Source: Saccostrea cucullata (Eukaryota). Taken from it: a stretch of 64,000 nt of DNA. The position numbers were made by a program, and so were the translations under genes. The stretch's first letter is position 1, and every line of letters begins with the position of its first letter. The stretch lies in the NCBI RefSeq assembly GCF_032062105.1, contig NW_026936221.1:1-64000 (forward strand). Direction: 5' to 3'. The notes below the pieces were generated by a model. That model was not told the origin of the DNA. It searched no databases and saw only the letters and a program-made list of their open reading frames with translations. Positions 4,951 to 62,606 of the stretch are shown one piece after another.

Positions 4951-5525
4951 TATATTGCAGTTCTACACTGTACGATAAACTTTATTGTAAATCTCATAAC
5001 TTGTTCTAAAAAATACAGATAATGAACAGCAATCGATTTTAAAAAAACTACAGCAAAATACATCTGTAAAAAGGACCAAAACAAAAAACAAAACACGGAC
5101 CCTTGGAAATTCTAGAGGTTTGGTTAGGTGCCTTAGAGGATTAAGCGTGAAATCCTTTTTGAAATTTTTTCTACAAAAATTAAAAATTCTGGAATTTTAA
5201 ATCACAGTCTGAACACTGGACACAGAGAACATACCTTGACACAATAGAAACTGACTTAGTGGAATAACAAACAACTATTTCATTGCAAAAGGCATATATC
5301 AAAATGCTACGAATTTTAAAATGTTTAATGCAGTCAAACAAAATTTCCATTACAACTAGTATTACAACTATACATTTTTAGCAATAAGCTTTATACAGCT
5401 ACATACATGTATATGCAACTAAGTCCGGTTTTTAAATTTCCAAAACAAAGCAAAAGATAAGAAGAGGAAAATTCCCACCATGATGTCTAAATGTTTCATT
5501 CAAAATATGTTGAAACAATCCTCCT

Positions 5526-6794
5526 TCACGTTAATGTTATTACTAGGATAAACCACTGAAAGAAAACAAAGATGTAAAAATAGTGCATCATCACTCTGTC
5601 ATATCCCTCCGCTAAAATCTTCCAAGTTACCTTCTTCTCTGCCTCAGTATCTTGCTCATCTTCGTTAGGAGCAATATATTTCTTTTCAAAACTTACATCC
5701 AGTTCCGCAGATTTGTCAGCGACTTTAGCCTTCTTTTTTCGTTTTCCACAGATGTCGTGCAAGAATCGGAGTCGAAGCACATTTAGCACAAAAACACTTT
5801 TACTTGAGACGTGAAAAGTAGGGTCTCTGAAATGAAAACGCATCGTTACAACAGCCAGAACGCTTATAAGTGTGCTCATCGACATTGTTATTATTAAGAA
5901 ATATGACATTAAAGACATTGGCTCTGAAGATTTAGGGATATTGTCACTTAGCAATGTCATAAACACGGCAAATGACAAGAAGATGGTTATAGCATAGGAT
6001 ACACGTTCTCCACTTTCCACTGGTAATGCAAACACTAGAGGGTTGAGTAAGGACAATAAAAGGATAGGGGCTAACATGTTTATGATGAAATAAAGAGATT
6101 TCCTCTTCAAAATTAGTCGAATTTCAATTAAATTATCAAAATGTTCGAGAACAGCCCGTTTCATAAGTGCCTTTTGTAATGTCCATTGGGCATTCGGGGA
6201 GTAGTACGTCGTATCCGCGACTGTCACACCATTCAAGGGGATTAATCTCACTTCATTTGGATAATATCCCCACGGTGATAAAGTGAATGAGCAAGTTTGT
6301 GTATCAAATGGAAATTTATACATATCAACGTTGCAAAGAGTCTGAATCAGACCAGCAGGTATCCATCTTGTAGTTCCGGTGTAAGAAATTCTCCCCAAGA
6401 AGTCTTCATCTCCAAGGGCTTCCATTTTATTTGCTGGGTCAATCAAAAAGATATTAGGAATCCATATTTTTTCCTTGGGAACTGGGATTTCTTCGATGTC
6501 ACCATAGTTGCTTGGTGTCCAAGTCAATCGAAAATCCTGCCAAAACATACCAAGGCCACAAACAATTGACAACACACCAGAAATCTCATCAAAATCATTT
6601 ATTGAAAAAATCATGGGCATAAGAGCGACCTCTAAAGCTTCTGAAAAGTTCGCTTTTGGTCGGATTTCTTTAGAGTAGTTCTTGAAAACCTCTTGAAGAA
6701 GTAATTCAGCGTCAGTATAAAGACCTTGAACATTTGTTAGTGATGTTCCTGAAATTAATAGCAAAAACAAACCCAAATTAGGAACTTTCTTCAT
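5526..6794 (-). CDS. G1: nAChR-like Cys-loop ligand-gated cation channel subunit, non-alpha (no vicinal cysteines), single coding exon, 422 aa
   Basis: Signal peptide (..TNVQG), NYSKEIRP, WIPNI, Cys loop CNVDMYKFPFDTQTC, LKRK pre-M1, M1-M3, GER before M2, DR before C-terminal M4. Confidence 0.96.
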   Translation of the reverse strand: MKKVPNLGLFLLLISGTSLTNVQGLYTDAELLLQEVFKNYSKEIRPKANFSEALEVALMPMIFSINDFDEISGVLSIVCGLGMFWQDFRLTWTPSNYGDIEEIPVPKEKIWIPNIFLIDPANKMEALGDEDFLGRISYTGTTRWIPAGLIQTLCNVDMYKFPFDTQTCSFTLSPWGYYPNEVRLIPLNGVTVADTTYYSPNAQWTLQKALMKRAVLEHFDNLIEIRLILKRKSLYFIINMLAPILLLSLLNPLVFALPVESGERVSYAITIFLSFAVFMTLLSDNIPKSSEPMSLMSYFLIITMSMSTLISVLAVVTMRFHFRDPTFHVSSKSVFVLNVLRLRFLHDICGKRKKKAKVADKSAELDVSFEKKYIAPNEDEQDTEAEKKVTWKILAEGYDRVMMHYFYIFVFFQWFILVITLT

Positions 6795-7489
6795 GATCCA
6801 CTCAAGCTGTCTATTTTGAAATTAAACAGCTATCTGCACACAAATGGTCGATCGTCGAATAATAGGTATGAAATGTAACTGCTGTGTTTCCGTTCACTCT
6901 AATGTTCAGTTCATTTTTTATGTTGATTAGTTTGAAATAGAATTTATAAACAGTCCTCGCTAAAATTCAGTTGTCTCACTGTATTTTAAAAAGAAAAACA
7001 TCCCATGAACAAATATTAATCAGCAATATTTGTTATCACGCTTCAAAAGATAAATGAAATAAGGTCCGACTTGCTGTAAATATTAGCACAGTACTAACGA
7101 AGTCCTCTATTAATGTCTTCACTAAATATCTTTTTTAAAATAAATTTGAATTAGGATGATCTTTTTGATATTTTCTATTTGGGGCGTGTGTAGCCAATGT
7201 TATAAGCCGAGGAATCTGAAATAAGATAAAACAAGGCATCCGACAAGTACTTTTATAGTTCAGCTTCGATCTGCTGCAGGCAAATTGTCTGTCCATCTAG
7301 CTAGGTATTCTATATGAGCCAATCAATGGTTATGATGTGATATCTGAGATTTGGAAGATTACAATTACATTCATAATTATATTGGACACATTTAAAAGGG
7401 TCCAAACCTCCAACAACAACAAAATCAGGACATCAGTAAAAAAAAATTATATAGCAAGATCTTGAGTGTCAAATATTCAAATGTTAAAT

Positions 7490-8780
7490 AGTAAATGTTC
7501 AACCAAGCCTCTTTCGTTACTCCTCTCTAAGATACTGACAGTAGTGAAGGAAAAATTCAAAAGTACTGTGCAACAATATACACAAGAAGTGGTGTGAATC
7601 AGATGTGGGACTCAAAAATTCTAAAGAACTTTTGGACTGGACAATTTGAAATCACAAGATTTTACCAAAATCAACAGCTTAAAAACTTACGACTTTTCTA
7701 CTTTATACACCACCATTCCCCATGATAAATTAAAACCCAGGCTTTTGGATATCACCGACAGCTGCTTTTTCAATAAAAATGGAACTCGTAAATTTACTAA
7801 CCTGGTCATTGGTCATTTGCAAAATTATTTGTTAAAACACATTCTGATTGCACACACAAATACTAGCACTCTGAATTGACATGAAAAAGATGCTTGAGTT
7901 TTGAATTGACAATATCTATGTGGTCTTTGGAGATCAGGTCTTCCAACAATCTATTGGAATTCCATGGGTACAAATTGCGCTCCATTATTAGCAGGCCCAC
8001 TTTATATTCATATGAAGCAGAATTTATGCAAAATCTTATGCGTGCAAAGAAGAAAACACTGGCTGTGGCCTTAAAACTCGACATTTAGATATATCGACGT
8101 ATTGCCAATTAACAATGGTAATTGTCGATACGATATACTTGTATCCTGGTGAGCCTGAGATAAAACATACGACAGAGTTTGACACATCTGTTTCATAGTT
8201 GGATATTTTACTTGAAAAAGACTTAATGGTAATCTAACAACCAAGTTCTATGGTAAACGCATTGACTTTAACTTTTCAATCGTCAAGTTCCCTTACTTAT
8301 GCAGCAATATACCTTCAATACCTTCATCACCTGCTTACTGGGTTTATATCTCTCAGTTGATTCGATACGCAAGACCTTGCTCTACGTATGAACAATTTCT
8401 AAGAAGAGCTATATTACTGACAAACATGTTGATGAAACAAGACTATCAGCAGTCTTGTTTAAAGTAATGATTTCGTAAGTTCTATGGTCGATGCATGACC
8501 TTGTCAGCAAATACAATTTATCATGGGACAAATGCTGACTAACGTTTTTCATACTTATTGTTGGTCCATTATACACTGAATAAACGATTAATTTTCCCGT
8601 TATAACCCGATAATGACAAGGAGCACACGGCGGGTGTGACGGTAGGCAGGGGATGCTCACTCCTCCATAGCATCTGATCCCACCTCTGATGTTTTGGAGG
8701 TCGTGTTTCCTCTGTTTCTATTTATGTATTGTTTTATGGGCTTTGATATTGAATACTGTTCGTTACCTCCATATTCTTTA
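7490..8780 (+). mobile_element. Degenerate 5'-truncated Penelope-like retroelement (RT and 3' end)
   Basis: Frameshifted RT motifs TYDFSTLYTTIPH, GIPMGTNCAP, YSYEAEF, FRYID, SQLIRYAR; conserved 3' motif cggcgggtgtgac...ctgatcccacctct. Confidence 0.88.
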
Positions 8781-10308
8781 TCACTAACTCTACATTTGTG
8801 TCAAGCTCAGACTTTTAGCATTTTTTTTGTTATTAGCTAATGCAAGTAATAAATTGAAAGAATGCAAATAATTGTGAGTTTTAATATTGACAGAAGAAAT
8901 GCTGAATGAGTTTGAACGCTATCAGCTTTCCAATCAAAACGTGTATTAACGATTTAATAGAATCAAATAGATACGATAATTCGGGTTTTACCTGTTCATC
9001 AATGATTATTTAAAACAGCGGAAATTGATTGAAACGAGAGATCGTCCAGACGTCATAATCTTTCAAACCAGTTGAAGTATTCATATTCACCATCGCACTT
9101 TTTAAAAGGCAGCAAATAATCACTTATATTTGTTTAAATCATTCTCGACATCTAACCTTTTCTTTACGAGAATTATTCGAGTCAATCATAAAGATTTAAG
9201 CATATCTTAAAAATGGCTGAATTTAAATTATTTTTACTCACCATTTTGAAATATAGATGTTGTATCTTATTAATTTGAAAACCACTATTTACACACTGAA
9301 TTGTGTACGGATTATTCCGTTCTTCTCGACCATGACAATTAGGAGCAGAATATGCTCATTCCTTCATGGCACCTGATCCCATCTCTAATGATAATAGGTC
9401 CATATCTGCTCCGTTTTGTAATGTTTGAGTGGACTTATCAGCTTAACTAGTGTTCGTCCTCTCCATATTTCAGTAAGAGAAAAACATTTTCAGAGTTAAA
9501 GAATGAAAGTGAAACATATACATATAGTCTGAATTATCATGATTTTAATCTAATCACATGTCAGTCCGTCTTTTCAATCAGAGGCGTAACTACGAGGGCT
9601 GTTCCATAAATAATGTCCTGAACCGTATTACATACAATACAGATATCATATGACATTAAACTTGACTTTCTCTCATTATTGAATCTTTACTGAATTTACA
9701 ACAGTTTATGTGACCACTTTTCATCACATAGTTTCATCGTGAGAAGCTGGAAAACAAGGGCTATTCGAGACACTGCATTATCAATGAATGGTAAAGAATC
9801 AGTAAACTAGAGTGAAAATGAAAGCTACATTAAAGCTGCTGTAAAACTTGTTAAAAATCCCAAAGAAATATTCACTGAAATATGTGACATTTACAGCAAC
9901 CGATGCCTGTTTTTATAGACAAATGATCAGGTGGATTTCAATGATAAAAATTATATAATGGGCATCAAAGATGGGTACCCTCTTTGCCAACAAAAGTTAT
10001 AACAACTTTTGTACTGATTGCCAAAGGATGCGGTGACTTGCGGTGTAACGTTGAATTTTGACCCGGGTTGAAAATTGACCCGGGGGTCATTTTTCAACAT
10101 TGAATACTGAGACCGAAGGTGTTGAATTTAGACCCTAATCCGTTGAAAACTGAGCCGGGTCGTGGAATTTTGATCATGAAACCGGTTCAAAATTCAACAG
10201 CATAAAAACACATATTTATGATTGGGTTTTCACTACTGTGATTTAATTCATGGGTATGAGACCCCGTTTTAGTATTTACTGCAAAAAGTAGTATCCCCTA
10301 TTTGAATA

Positions 10309-58382: not shown

Positions 58383-58883
58383 AACAAGAGGCCCAGGGGC
58401 CACATCGCTCACCTGAGCAAATCGGCTAGGAAAAAGCACAGATCAGATCAGAACAGAAAAGTTCACTGAAGGGAGGGAGGCTTGAATTTTAATACTACTT
58501 GAGATTGTCTTCATATTAATACAGCATATGACTTTGCTGTTCTTGATAAAAAGATTTTTTGAAAACATTTTCTTCCTATATATAACTTCATAATAATTTG
58601 AATTTGATTCCTCATTGTTTCCCTCTCTACCCCAAAGGGCCATGATTTGAATAAATTTATATCTTCAATACATGAGGCTGCTTAAATGTCAATATGACTA
58701 AACATAGCTTTTCTGTTCTTAGGATTTTTTCCTTTATTTTTCTAAGTAAAACTTTGATCCACCATTGTGGCCCCATCCTACCCTTGGGGGTTATGATTTG
58801 AACAAATTTAAATCTACACTACCCGAAAATGCTTCCATATAAATACTAGTATTACTAAACACGGTTTTGCTATTCTTGGGAAG

Positions 58884-58923
<40 letters not shown>

Positions 58924-59618
58924 TGTAAAACTTGGATCCCCCATTGTGGCCCACCTATCCCTGGGGGTTATGATGTGAACAAACTAGAATCTATACTACC
59001 TGAGGATGATTCCACATAAGTAAATTATATCTAATCATGGCTTTGAAGTACTTGAGAAGACGATTTTAAAATATTTCCCTATCTAGTCCAATGTAGAACT
59101 TTGATCAGCCATTTTGCCCCTCCCCAACCCCCAGGGGTCATGATTTGAATAAACTTGAATCTACACTACCTGACGATGGTTTAACATAAATTTCATCTTT
59201 CCTGGCCCAGTGATTCCTGAGAAGAAGATTTTTAAAGATTTTTCCTATACATTCCTATATAAAATTTTGATTGGCCATTGCGGAACCACCCTACCCACAG
59301 GGGTCATGATTTGAACAAACTTGAATCCACGCTACATGAGGATGCTTCCACATGAGTTTCATCTTTCCTGGCCCATTGAGTCTTGAGAAGAAGATTTTTA
59401 AAGATTTTCCTTATATACTCCTATGTAAAACTTTGATCAGCCATTGTGGCCCCAACCTACTGGGGGTCATGATTTGAACAAACTTGAATCTACAATACCT
59501 GAGGATGCTTCCACATGAGTTTCATCTTTCCTGGCCTAGTGGTTCTTGAGAAGAAGATTTTTGAAAAATGCCATTAATGTTTCACTAATTCATAATTATC
59601 TCCCCTTGGAAATGGGCC

Positions 59619-59655
<37 letters not shown>

Positions 59656-59758
59656 TAAGGATACTTTGTGGCAAGTTTGGTTGAAATTGCCCCAGTAGTT
59701 CTTGAAAAGAAGATGAAAATGTGAAAAATTTATGACGATGCCGACAACGCCAACGGAA

Positions 59759-59790
<32 letters not shown>

Positions 59791-59804
59791 GGCTTAGTTG
59801 AGCT
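58383..59804 (-). mobile_element. HINE/pearl-type element with diverged ~166-bp repeats and a (TA)n tract
   Basis: Same termini as 28135-29770 (aacaagaggccc..gctcacctgag; agctcacttgagcc); absent from the paralogous spacer at ~51850. Confidence 0.85.
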
Positions 59805-60014
59805 GCAAACTAAAAACTGTGCATCAGTTACCCAAAACAAATGAATGGAAAAGGCCTAAATTTGAAGAAATGGCCGGGGTGTCACTTATTTTTCCGATAT
59901 ATGTATATGTACATTATTAATTATTCAATATACTGTAGAAAACTTTTTGAATGTGCCCCCTCAAAAGTTATGTCTGATAATTTTGTTTTCACCAAAACTT
60001 TTGCTTCATGAGGG

Positions 60015-61325: not shown

Positions 61326-62606
61326 TCAAAATTGAACCGAAACAGCGTATGATATCCAGAAAAAGAAAGTAAAGAAATAGAAGTAGTACATTAATACTCT
61401 ATCATAGGCACGAGCCACACTTTTATAAGTCGTAACATTGTCTAATTCATCACTTTCTCTGTTTTCAAGTTTAGTAGTCCCTACACAAGTCTTCACAAAC
61501 ACTACATCTTTGACTTCATTTTCTGCACCAACGCTAGCAGATCCTGATTTTTTCTTCTTACAACAATTAAATATAAAACGGAGTTGAAGAAGTTTTAAAA
61601 CATTCAGTACTTTTCTAGAAACTTTTGCTTCTGGTTCTTTTAAATGAAGACACATAGTGAATATTGTTAAAATAGTCATGAGTGTGCTCAAACACATCGT
61701 AAAAATCAAAAAGTAAGAAAGAAGAGCCATAGGTTCTGATGATTTTGGCATGTTGTCACTGAGTAGAGTCATAAATACAGCAAAAGATAAGAAAATCGTA
61801 ATTGCATAGGAAATGCGTTCACCGCTATCCATAGGTAAAACGAACACCAATGGATTTAGAAGGGATAGGAGAAGAATTGGGGCCAACATGTTGAGAATGA
61901 AATATAGAGACTTTCTTTTCAGAGTCATCGTGATGCGTATCAGAGTCTGGGATGGACCAAGATTTGACTGGGCCAAGTAAGTCTTCATCAAATCCCACTG
62001 GCCATTTTTGTTGAAAAAAGAAGTGTCTACATTTGTAACATTATTCCATGGAAGCAAGATGGCATCTTCAGAAGTATATCCCCAGAGCGTAAACTTAAGT
62101 GAGCATTCCTGCGTGTCAAACGGAAATCTGAACATGTCAATGCTACATTGGGAAGTAAGTAGTCCACCTGGCACCCATGACATGGTGCCATCAGAATACA
62201 TCCTTCCGAGAAAGTCGCCATCTCCGATAGCTTCCATTTTATTGGCAGTGTCTATCAGAAACAGCCTTGGGGCCCAAATCTTTTTGAGTGGAACGGGCAA
62301 GTTGTCCAGTCCTCCGTAAGTGCTCGGCGACCACGCGAGGCGAAAATCATTCCATTCCAGTCTGAAGGCGGCTACCACTGACAGTATTCCGGATATTTCA
62401 TCTAAATTGTTCAGTGATATTAGATAAACATAAATGCCCACTTTTGTTGGTTCTGACAGATTCGACTGAGGGCGTAAATCTGGATTATAATTCCCAAATA
62501 AGTTTTGGTAAAGAGAGGAACTATCTGAAAACATTGCTCCCTGAACACTTGTTCCAAATAAAATATAAATGAAAAACACTGAAGAAATAAACCACATCGT
62601 CTTCAT
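61326..62606 (-). CDS. G7: nAChR-like Cys-loop cation channel subunit, close paralogue of G6, 426 aa from first ATG
   Basis: ORF-track start at 62630 is TTG; first ATG is 62606; Cys loop CSIDMFRFPFDTQEC, 4 TM, GER-M2. Confidence 0.95.
   Translation of the reverse strand: MKTMWFISSVFFIYILFGTSVQGAMFSDSSSLYQNLFGNYNPDLRPQSNLSEPTKVGIYVYLISLNNLDEISGILSVVAAFRLEWNDFRLAWSPSTYGGLDNLPVPLKKIWAPRLFLIDTANKMEAIGDGDFLGRMYSDGTMSWVPGGLLTSQCSIDMFRFPFDTQECSLKFTLWGYTSEDAILLPWNNVTNVDTSFFNKNGQWDLMKTYLAQSNLGPSQTLIRITMTLKRKSLYFILNMLAPILLLSLLNPLVFVLPMDSGERISYAITIFLSFAVFMTLLSDNMPKSSEPMALLSYFLIFTMCLSTLMTILTIFTMCLHLKEPEAKVSRKVLNVLKLLQLRFIFNCCKKKKSGSASVGAENEVKDVVFVKTCVGTTKLENRESDELDNVTTYKSVARAYDRVLMYYFYFFTFFFWISYAVSVQF

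Follow-up and report, generated by a model that had tools for sequence, protein, structure and literature searches.

According to the main text of Jiao et al. (2019; PMC6896357), five bivalves carry 99 to 217 nAChR genes that are intronless and arranged in tandem, and C. gigas has tandem arrays of seven and eight genes. Of the 132 genes in this oyster, 33 are of the alpha type and 13 have a complete principal acetylcholine (ACh) site. Bivalve nAChR genes are reported to peak in expression in the gill, where ChAT is not expressed; some are on in embryos before ACh synthesis, and some oyster members are gonad or embryo specific or react to Vibrio and herpesvirus (PMC6896357). The main text of that study notes the loss of the ACh site in general terms and suggests diverse ligands, and chemosensation goes unmentioned there.

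The cephalopod CRs are reported to be nAChR-derived, intronless, tandemly arranged, and ACh-insensitive, with a variable pocket (PMC11526382); they are opened by hydrophobic molecules, and their pocket is positively selected (PMC11526382, PMC9068888). The pocket of CRT1 is described as using Y58, W122, F124, and F192 (10.1101/2025.03.03.641191). In MolluscaGenes (PMC13174522), some molluscan clades are described as having substitutions at the binding residues, bivalves are among the members of a CR-like clade, and alternative ligands and chemosensation are put forward as hypotheses. Loop C is reported to be shortened in both ZAC and CRT1, with an even shorter one described for ZAC (PMC11536092), and nematode channels gated by ACh or choline are described in which the vicinal Cys pair is missing and the aromatics are shifted but kept (PMC9962794). 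We found no functional study and no deorphanized bivalve member of the gene group analyzed here in the open-access literature.

Gene content of the array

The window (i.e., the whole 64,000-nt stretch of Saccostrea cucullata DNA that was analyzed; contig NW_026936221.1) contains seven nAChR-like genes, G1 to G7, which are intronless, arranged in tandem within 57 kb, and all on the minus strand. The window is AT-rich (27 to 38% GC per 2 kb), and its only ORFs of at least 150 aa are eight minus-strand frames that together make up the seven genes. In the intact genes, the coding sequence is a single ORF of 422 to 426 aa. A search by tblastn and nhmmer for further degenerate gene copies within the window found none beyond G1 to G7.

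5526..6794, minus strand: G1, intact intronless nAChR-like subunit of 422 aa, with signal peptide, ECD, M1 to M4, and a short M3-M4 loop
17309..18612, minus strand: G2, frameshifted copy of G1 in two frames, probable pseudogene, on a 4.7-kb segmental duplicate
17912..17982, minus strand: exact 35-bp tandem duplication in the loop C coding region of G2, source of the frameshift
35693..36967, minus strand: G3, intact paralogue, 424 aa
46549..47820, minus strand: G4, intact paralogue, 423 aa
49745..51019, minus strand: G5, intact paralogue, 424 aa
53194..54474, minus strand: G6, intact, 426 aa; pocket polar, with Arg at positions 57 and 89 and Glu at position 59
61326..62606, minus strand: G7, intact, recent duplicate of G6

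G1 and G2 lie within 4.7-kb duplicates at 90% identity, and G6 and G7 lie within 1.9-kb duplicates at 92% DNA identity, flanks included in both cases. The initial annotation counted seven paralogues. Seven copies are indeed present; G2, however, is frameshifted by the 35-bp duplication and is probably a pseudogene, and therefore six genes are intact. General pseudogene decay of these six was ruled out by their open frames and by pairwise dN/dS values of 0.17 to 0.31 where measurable.

The two halves of the G2 protein on either side of the frameshift are still 87 to 91% identical to G1, and the frame break is thus recent or an assembly error. Among the matches listed for reads over the G2 duplication, none had a joint there, and the G2 ECD had zero coverage in all four runs.

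Some features outside the coding sequences were also observed. In G1 to G4, an AG that follows a pyrimidine-rich stretch about 14 to 20 nt upstream of the ATG (e.g., 6795-6815) could be a 5' UTR splice acceptor; at G3, a contig of run X1 (see below) continues unspliced past this AG, which leaves the candidate acceptor unsupported so far. Self-matches revealed satellite tandem arrays between genes whose units recur about every 147 and 167 bp (26356-27410, 28245-29777, and 58539-59816). The regions 7500-8800 and 15000-15500 are a high-copy repeat with very high read depth and broken frames that resemble a retroelement remnant; three short frames of this repeat had no Pfam match.

The array shares with the expansion described by Jiao et al. 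an oyster host, intronless ORFs, tandem arrangement, the LBD plus TM organization, and a non-alpha character (PMC6896357). Intronless coding sequences and stepwise tandem duplication in a bivalve were both found, the latter as seven same-strand copies. On this basis, we assign G1 to G7 to this bivalve gene expansion.

Channel fold, pore, and gating elements

All six intact genes scored above the cutoff for Pfam PF02931 and PF02932 (LBD and TM). The AlphaFold2 models of G1 and G6 had pLDDT values of 83.6 and 88.1, and a fold search with the G1 model matched nAChR structures (best Z, 30.7). The Cys-loop (C-x13-C with FPFD) is present in 7 of 7 genes, the beta1-beta2 Glu and the M2-M3 Pro are conserved, and M2 is near-identical throughout, with a GER start, Leu9', and Val13'. 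The cation-type signature of M2 (Glu at -1', no Pro-Ala-Arg) was found in all seven; our reading of GER/Leu9'/Val13' as cation type follows from what is established for nAChR pores. The genes are thus, as far as their sequences tell, of the Cys-loop pentameric ligand-gated ion channel type, nAChR-like, with a predicted cation pore.

The closest PDB sequence and fold matches were the canonical alpha3, alpha6, alpha7, beta2, and beta4 subunits, with which the array shares the Cys-loop, the loop B Trp, and the cation-type M2. In contrast, the Cys-less clade of PMC13174522 is described there with anion-type motifs, whereas G1 to G7 are of the GER type.

Residues of the acetylcholine site

G1 was aligned to human alpha3, alpha6, and alpha7, with loops D, A, and B falling within ungapped stretches. 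The alpha7 residue numbers used below are labels for the positions aligned with alpha7. The sites of interest in G1 are as follows.

6612..6614, minus strand: Met61, beta1 position of alpha7 Ser36 (M, M, F, I, F, Y, Y across G1 to G7)
6555..6557, minus strand: Gly80, loop D Trp55 position (alpha3/alpha7 alignment)
6441..6443, minus strand: Ile118, loop A Tyr93 position (alpha3/alpha7 alignment)
6390..6392, minus strand: Arg135, loop E, alpha7 Leu109 position (Arg in 7 of 7 genes)
6270..6272, minus strand: Trp175, retained loop B Trp149 (alpha3/alpha7 alignment)
6102..6185, minus strand: beta9-loop C-beta10 hairpin of 28 residues without vicinal Cys, Phe219 at the tip

From G1 to G7, the Trp55 site reads G, G, G, S, G, A, A (no Trp in any gene), the Tyr93 site I, I, I, L, I, I, I, and the Asp89 site N, N, D, N, N, R, R, while the Trp149 site is W in 7 of 7. 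The alignment to alpha3/alpha7 thus bore out, in every gene, what the initial annotation had read from the sequence: Trp55 replaced by Gly, Ser, or Ala, Tyr93 replaced by Ile or Leu, and the loop B Trp as the sole remnant of the box. The motifs that it quoted are all present in the sequence, although the G1 beta1 motif (6606-6623) lies just beyond the span of 6090..6600 that it gave for them. Misalignment as the source of the apparent loss was ruled out because loops D, A, and B are ungapped and anchored by conserved Trp and Pro residues.

Loop C was said to be shortened and to have no YxCC, and both points hold. The vicinal Cys pair is absent from 7 of 7 genes, and each of the six intact genes has 28 residues between the beta9 Trp and the pre-M1 Arg; a hand count gave 33 residues in alpha3/alpha7 and 30 in beta2/beta4, i.e., the loop here is five residues shorter than in the alpha subunits and two shorter than in beta2/beta4. 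In the AlphaFold2 models of G1 and G6, strands 204-216 and 219-231 are joined by a two-residue turn. The models therefore indicate that the lid with Tyr188 and the Cys pair is deleted, not substituted, and the shorter loop should leave the pocket more open. A Phe or Tyr occupies the hairpin tip in five of seven genes (G1 and G3 to G6; absent in G2 and G7), one residue off the Tyr195 register, which itself holds Asp or Gln.

A Tyr-x-Cys in G6, which HMMER aligns as a YxCC remnant, was treated as a coincidence because it is collinear with a loop that lacks Cys in the other six genes, lies at the modeled hairpin tip, and occurs at that place in none of 216 relatives (see below).

Relative to canonical nAChR subunits, the seven genes therefore lack Trp55, Tyr93, Tyr188, Cys190-Cys191, and Tyr195; four of the five residues of the aromatic box are lost, together with the vicinal Cys pair. 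Of the residues that mark an alpha subunit, they have Trp149 and lack the vicinal Cys, Tyr93, Tyr188, and Tyr195, and the loop D Trp55 expected of an ACh-binding complementary (beta/gamma/delta-type) subunit is missing from 7 of 7. By these residues, the genes encode neither alpha subunits nor ACh-complementary subunits. The earlier judgment that they could serve neither face of an ACh site is supported by these losses, by the Asn or Arg at the Asp89 site in six of seven genes and by one to three pocket Arg or Lys residues per gene at positions where alpha7 has none. ACh binding by proteins of this type appears very unlikely.

Among described receptors, Alpo4, an Alvinella orphan, is likewise lophotrochozoan, nAChR-like, and without vicinal Cys, and is reported not to be gated by ACh; Alpo4, however, keeps the full aromatic set (F103, W159, Y199, Y205, and W65), whereas G1 to G7 keep one (PMC10338036).

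Composition of the remodeled pocket

From the pairing of strands, the beta1 equivalent of Ser36 would be the cross-strand neighbor of position 55. This beta1 site holds Phe, Tyr, Trp, or Met in 38 of 62 relatives with Gly55 versus 42 of 149 without it (counts uncorrected for kinship), which suggests that side-chain bulk has shifted from beta2 to beta1.

The initial annotation proposed a larger and more hydrophobic pocket, and each half of the proposal survives in part. Side-chain volume summed over 13 pocket sites outside loop C was 1835 to 2063 in G1 to G7 versus 1958 in alpha7; because the beta1 site is now Met, Phe, Ile, or Tyr, the lost Trp is refilled and total volume stays about that of alpha7. 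The pocket floor is clearly emptier in G1 and G2 only (283 versus 461). On the Kyte-Doolittle scale, the pockets of G1 to G5 are more hydrophobic than that of alpha7 (-0.56 to +0.19 versus -1.02), but on a Wimley-White scale they are not. The pockets of G6 and G7 are more polar than that of alpha7 on both scales, and the loop E Arg is invariant.

In loop E, the genes combine this Arg with Arg, Thr, or Ser (at the Gln117 position) and Val, Ile, or Thr. At position 57, the residues from G1 to G7 are G, G, M, T, F, R, R. The Leu109 position is Arg or Lys in 164 of 215 relatives. The loop E Arg, the W-G-Y of loop B, and Arg57 of G6 and G7 may resemble pocket residues of GABA and glycine receptors. 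The loop E Arg may bind a carboxylate or bridge subunits, and the cationic pocket residues would disfavor a quaternary ammonium ligand and suit neutral or anionic ones. Apart from the Arg at the Leu109 site, no residue of the hypervariable complementary face is conserved.

Octopus CRT1 and squid CRB1 are reported to be, like G1 to G7, nAChR-derived, intronless, tandem, without an ACh site, and short in loop C. Tyr93 and Asp89 are missing from CRT1 as well, and its beta1 Ser36 position is occupied by Tyr. CRT1 Tyr58, however, aligns with G1 Gly80, and since this Trp55 position is Gly, Ser, or Ala in the array, the pocket chemistry is not that of CRT1. Likewise, Trp122 and Phe124 of CRT1 contrast with an Arg-bearing loop E here, if the sites are equivalent as they appear to be. 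The array thus most likely resembles the cephalopod CRs in logic and not in pocket chemistry.

Sequence scores gave no consistent sign of a special kinship with CRT1. CRT1 was the top match for G1 residues 9-140 (68.0 bits versus 57.2 for the next non-CRT1 chain), but this hint was not reproduced elsewhere: CRT1 ranked 12th for the G1 ECD and 52nd when the corresponding part of G6 was used, and it did not reach the top 60 with an 84-sequence profile. Among the fold-search matches listed for the G1 model, CRT1 was absent, which has no bearing on kinship.

Selection and divergence

Protein identity among the seven genes is 76 to 99% in the TM versus 46 to 93% in the ECD. Pairwise dN/dS, measurable in seven of 15 intact-gene pairs (dS was saturated in the other eight and undefined in seven of those), was 0.17 to 0.25 in the six pairs among G1, G3, G4, and G5 and 0.31 for G6/G7. 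A codon model of the seven sequences, with G2 read through with X, gave an omega of 0.147. Site-wise mean omega was 0.09 in M1 to M3 (TM) and 0.24 in the ECD, and the membrane domain is thus under purifying selection.

Within the ECD, the 11 complementary-face sites had an omega of 0.50 (P = 0.0002 versus all ECD sites; P = 0.004 versus surface-like sites), whereas the 22 principal-face sites (omega, 0.29; P = 0.13 and 0.34) were not faster than background. The complementary face therefore evolves at about twice the ECD rate, with pocket omega remaining below 1. Recent duplicates show the same concentration: 7 of 14 ECD changes between G6 and G7 (Fisher P = 0.002) and 8 of 21 between G1 and G2 (Fisher P = 0.008) fall in 33 of 207 sites assigned to the pocket, these 33 having been picked from the alpha7 alignment after the paralogue alignment had been viewed. 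In canonical receptors, the pocket is reported to be conserved (10.1101/2025.10.28.685082); in contrast, the complementary pocket face is the fastest part of the ECD here.

Codon site models of the seven sequences gave no evidence of positive selection (M7 versus M8, P = 0.52; M8a versus M8, P = 1). For octopus CRs, positive selection on the pocket is reported; in the array, the pocket is faster than the ECD and the M7/M8 test, on seven sequences, is not significant. Pocket dN is similar to that of the disordered M3-M4 loop. Because pocket omega is below 1, relaxed constraint explains the fast change of the pocket equally well; both relaxation and ligand tuning fit.

Relatives across bivalves

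The closest named relatives were from Saccostrea echinata (up to 77% identity), followed by Ostrea and Crassostrea. A first set consisted of the best 120 of 229 matches, of which 115 were not encoded in the window; counting only matches with a residue aligned at the position concerned, it contained Trp55 in 0 of 111, Tyr93 in 0 of 113, vicinal Cys in 0 of 114, and Trp149 in 106 of 113. These were pooled with the best 150 of 11,534 HMMER matches, and 216 of 251 non-window proteins (330 to 560 aa) were kept. In the pooled set, Trp55 was found in 1 of 214 and Tyr93 in 2 of 216, vicinal Cys in none of 216, and Trp149 in 177 of 216; loop C was 27 to 28 residues long in 168 of 216. Asp89 was kept in 30 of 216. 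Only 13 of 41 close relatives have Tyr at the hairpin tip.

All named relatives are bivalve (oysters, Pinctada, scallops, Mytilus, Tegillarca, Mercenaria, and Sinanodonta). Of 20 clusters that were looked up, six had a species name, all bivalve and adding Mya, and 14 were nameless. Since 216 relatives have the same pattern, the loss of the box is not due to chance. The initial annotation treated this loss as peculiar to the array; it is instead the state of a large bivalve gene group. The alignments indicate a loss common to the group without implying a single origin, because relatives were picked for their likeness to G1 and the tree lacked a canonical outgroup. Databases annotate such genes as neuronal acetylcholine receptor subunits.

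Many of the top HMMER matches were 580 to 1,075 aa long with two to four matched stretches, i.e., predicted fusions of neighboring tandem copies. These are probably gene-calling artifacts, and such artifacts may also account for the domain combinations with several LBDs in the tables of PMC6896357.

Transcription

Public runs filed under the species label of the best match, with tissues not stated, were compared. In run X1, which is RNA by our guess, contigs extended across G3, G4, G6, and part of G5 at 92 to 97% identity, and several unique intergenic bins had zero depth. Contigs spanning the ECD of G1 at about 99% identity occurred in X1, X5, and X6, which come from three studies and of which X6 is recorded as RNA; the bin adjoining G1 (5001-5501) had a depth below 1. 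In raw poly(A) reads, X3 had a depth below 2, and the depth in X2 and X4 was about 0. These results fit low or tissue-restricted transcription of near-identical genes.

Candidate functions of the array

The reading that we prefer is that these genes are oyster members of the bivalve expansion that have kept the pore and gating elements and lost the ACh box. Their products would be pentameric channels opened by small molecules other than ACh, and these subunits would assemble with each other as homo- or heteropentamers. The ligand would lie between the loop B Trp of one subunit and the variable beta1/beta2/beta5-6 floor of the next, a floor formed by the beta1 Phe, Tyr, or Met and the invariant loop E Arg, and opening would allow cation flux. 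Each paralogue would probably be tuned to different small molecules, and the proteins would most likely serve as chemosensors on water-exposed tissue.

Our confidence differs between the parts of this reading. Gating by something other than ACh we consider quite probable; an environmental-sensor role falls at or just short of an even chance. For the account as a whole (non-cholinergic ligand-gated cation channels, tuned per paralogue and probably chemosensory), belief and doubt are in balance. It is favored by the loss of the box in 7 of 7 genes and in their relatives, the intact channel, the fast complementary face, and the near-identical transcripts. From the literature, the peak of bivalve nAChR expression in a gill that lacks ChAT, the embryonic expression that precedes ACh synthesis (PMC6896357), and the parallel route taken by the cephalopod CRs (PMC11526382) also speak for it. 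Against it are the lack of positive selection in the site models, a pocket omega below 1, a principal face evolving at the background rate, poly(A) depth below 2 or about 0 in three runs, and a pocket chemistry unlike that of CRT1; moreover, nematode channels gated by ACh or choline are reported to exist without vicinal Cys (PMC9962794).

Several of these points would also suit accessory subunits, which would sit beside canonical alpha subunits in heteropentamers, at the position that binds no ligand, and tune conductance, kinetics, or trafficking while their own pocket decayed. A pocket omega below 1 with no positive selection, a pocket dN like that of the disordered M3-M4 loop, and a strongly conserved pore all agree with such a role, for which the 33 alpha subunits reported in C. 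gigas are possible partners (PMC6896357). Ordinary non-alpha subunits, however, keep most box residues (beta2 and beta4 retain Trp in loop B and Tyr in loop C), and Alpo4 keeps its loop D Trp. Decay would also sit poorly with a complementary face that outpaces other surface-like sites (P = 0.004), a loop E Arg or Lys held in 164 of 215 relatives, and many tandem copies with differing pockets. We regard accessory subunits as an unlikely explanation.

A receptor for an endogenous signal other than ACh (a hormone, metabolite, amino-acid-like compound, or immune mediator) acting in hemocytes, gonad, or embryos would also combine a lost box with an intact channel. The invariant loop E Arg and the Arg57 of G6 and G7 would suit a carboxylate, given a putative likeness to GABA and glycine receptor arginines, and some oyster nAChR genes are reported to be gonad or embryo specific or responsive to Vibrio or herpesvirus (PMC6896357). 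A single ligand, however, predicts a conserved pocket, whereas the pocket residues vary between neighbors and across the group, which makes this alternative rather improbable.

We give still less credence to a rebuilt cation-pi site that would bind ACh, choline, or betaine weakly through Trp149, the Tyr or Phe at the loop C tip, and the beta1 Phe or Tyr. Three aromatics (Trp175, Tyr219, and Phe/Tyr61) may converge in G3, G5, and G6, and nematode choline/ACh channels are reported to function although they lack vicinal Cys and their aromatics are shifted (PMC9962794). Neither G2 nor G7, however, has the tip aromatic, only 13 of 41 close relatives have Tyr there, Asp89 is kept in only 30 of 216, and the pocket is lined by one to three Arg or Lys residues. 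Finally, ZAC-like gating by protons, by Zn or Cu, or spontaneously, with the pocket unused, is very improbable: loop C is also short in ZAC and CRT1 (PMC11536092), but no conserved His, Cys, or acidic cluster was found at the pocket sites examined, and the diversified complementary face would be left unexplained.

The array alone is one ordinary example of the published bivalve expansion. The present analysis contributes an anatomy at the level of single loops, the swap of beta1 for beta2, the conservation of the loop E Arg, and the fast change of the complementary face; the loop-by-loop account and the complementary-face analysis go beyond the main text of PMC6896357. If the preferred reading of non-cholinergic channels is extended to the whole bivalve nAChR expansion, the latter would be a very large ionotropic chemoreceptor family and an ancient parallel to the cephalopod CRs, a suggestion that we make tentatively and with somewhat more doubt than belief. 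Such a family would be common to oysters, mussels, scallops, clams, and unionids, would use a different pocket (i.e., the loop B Trp, the invariant loop E Arg, and an interchangeable beta1/beta2 floor), and would sense seawater, biofilms, food particles, and spawning cues on the gill, palp, mantle, and larva. Work on oyster immunity and toxicology reads these genes as ACh receptor subunits. If they are chemoreceptors, their cloneable 1.3-kb intronless ORFs would offer a concrete way into the sensing of food, settlement, and spawning cues by sessile filter feeders, and the family would provide a second test case for the evolution of neurotransmitter receptors into sensors.
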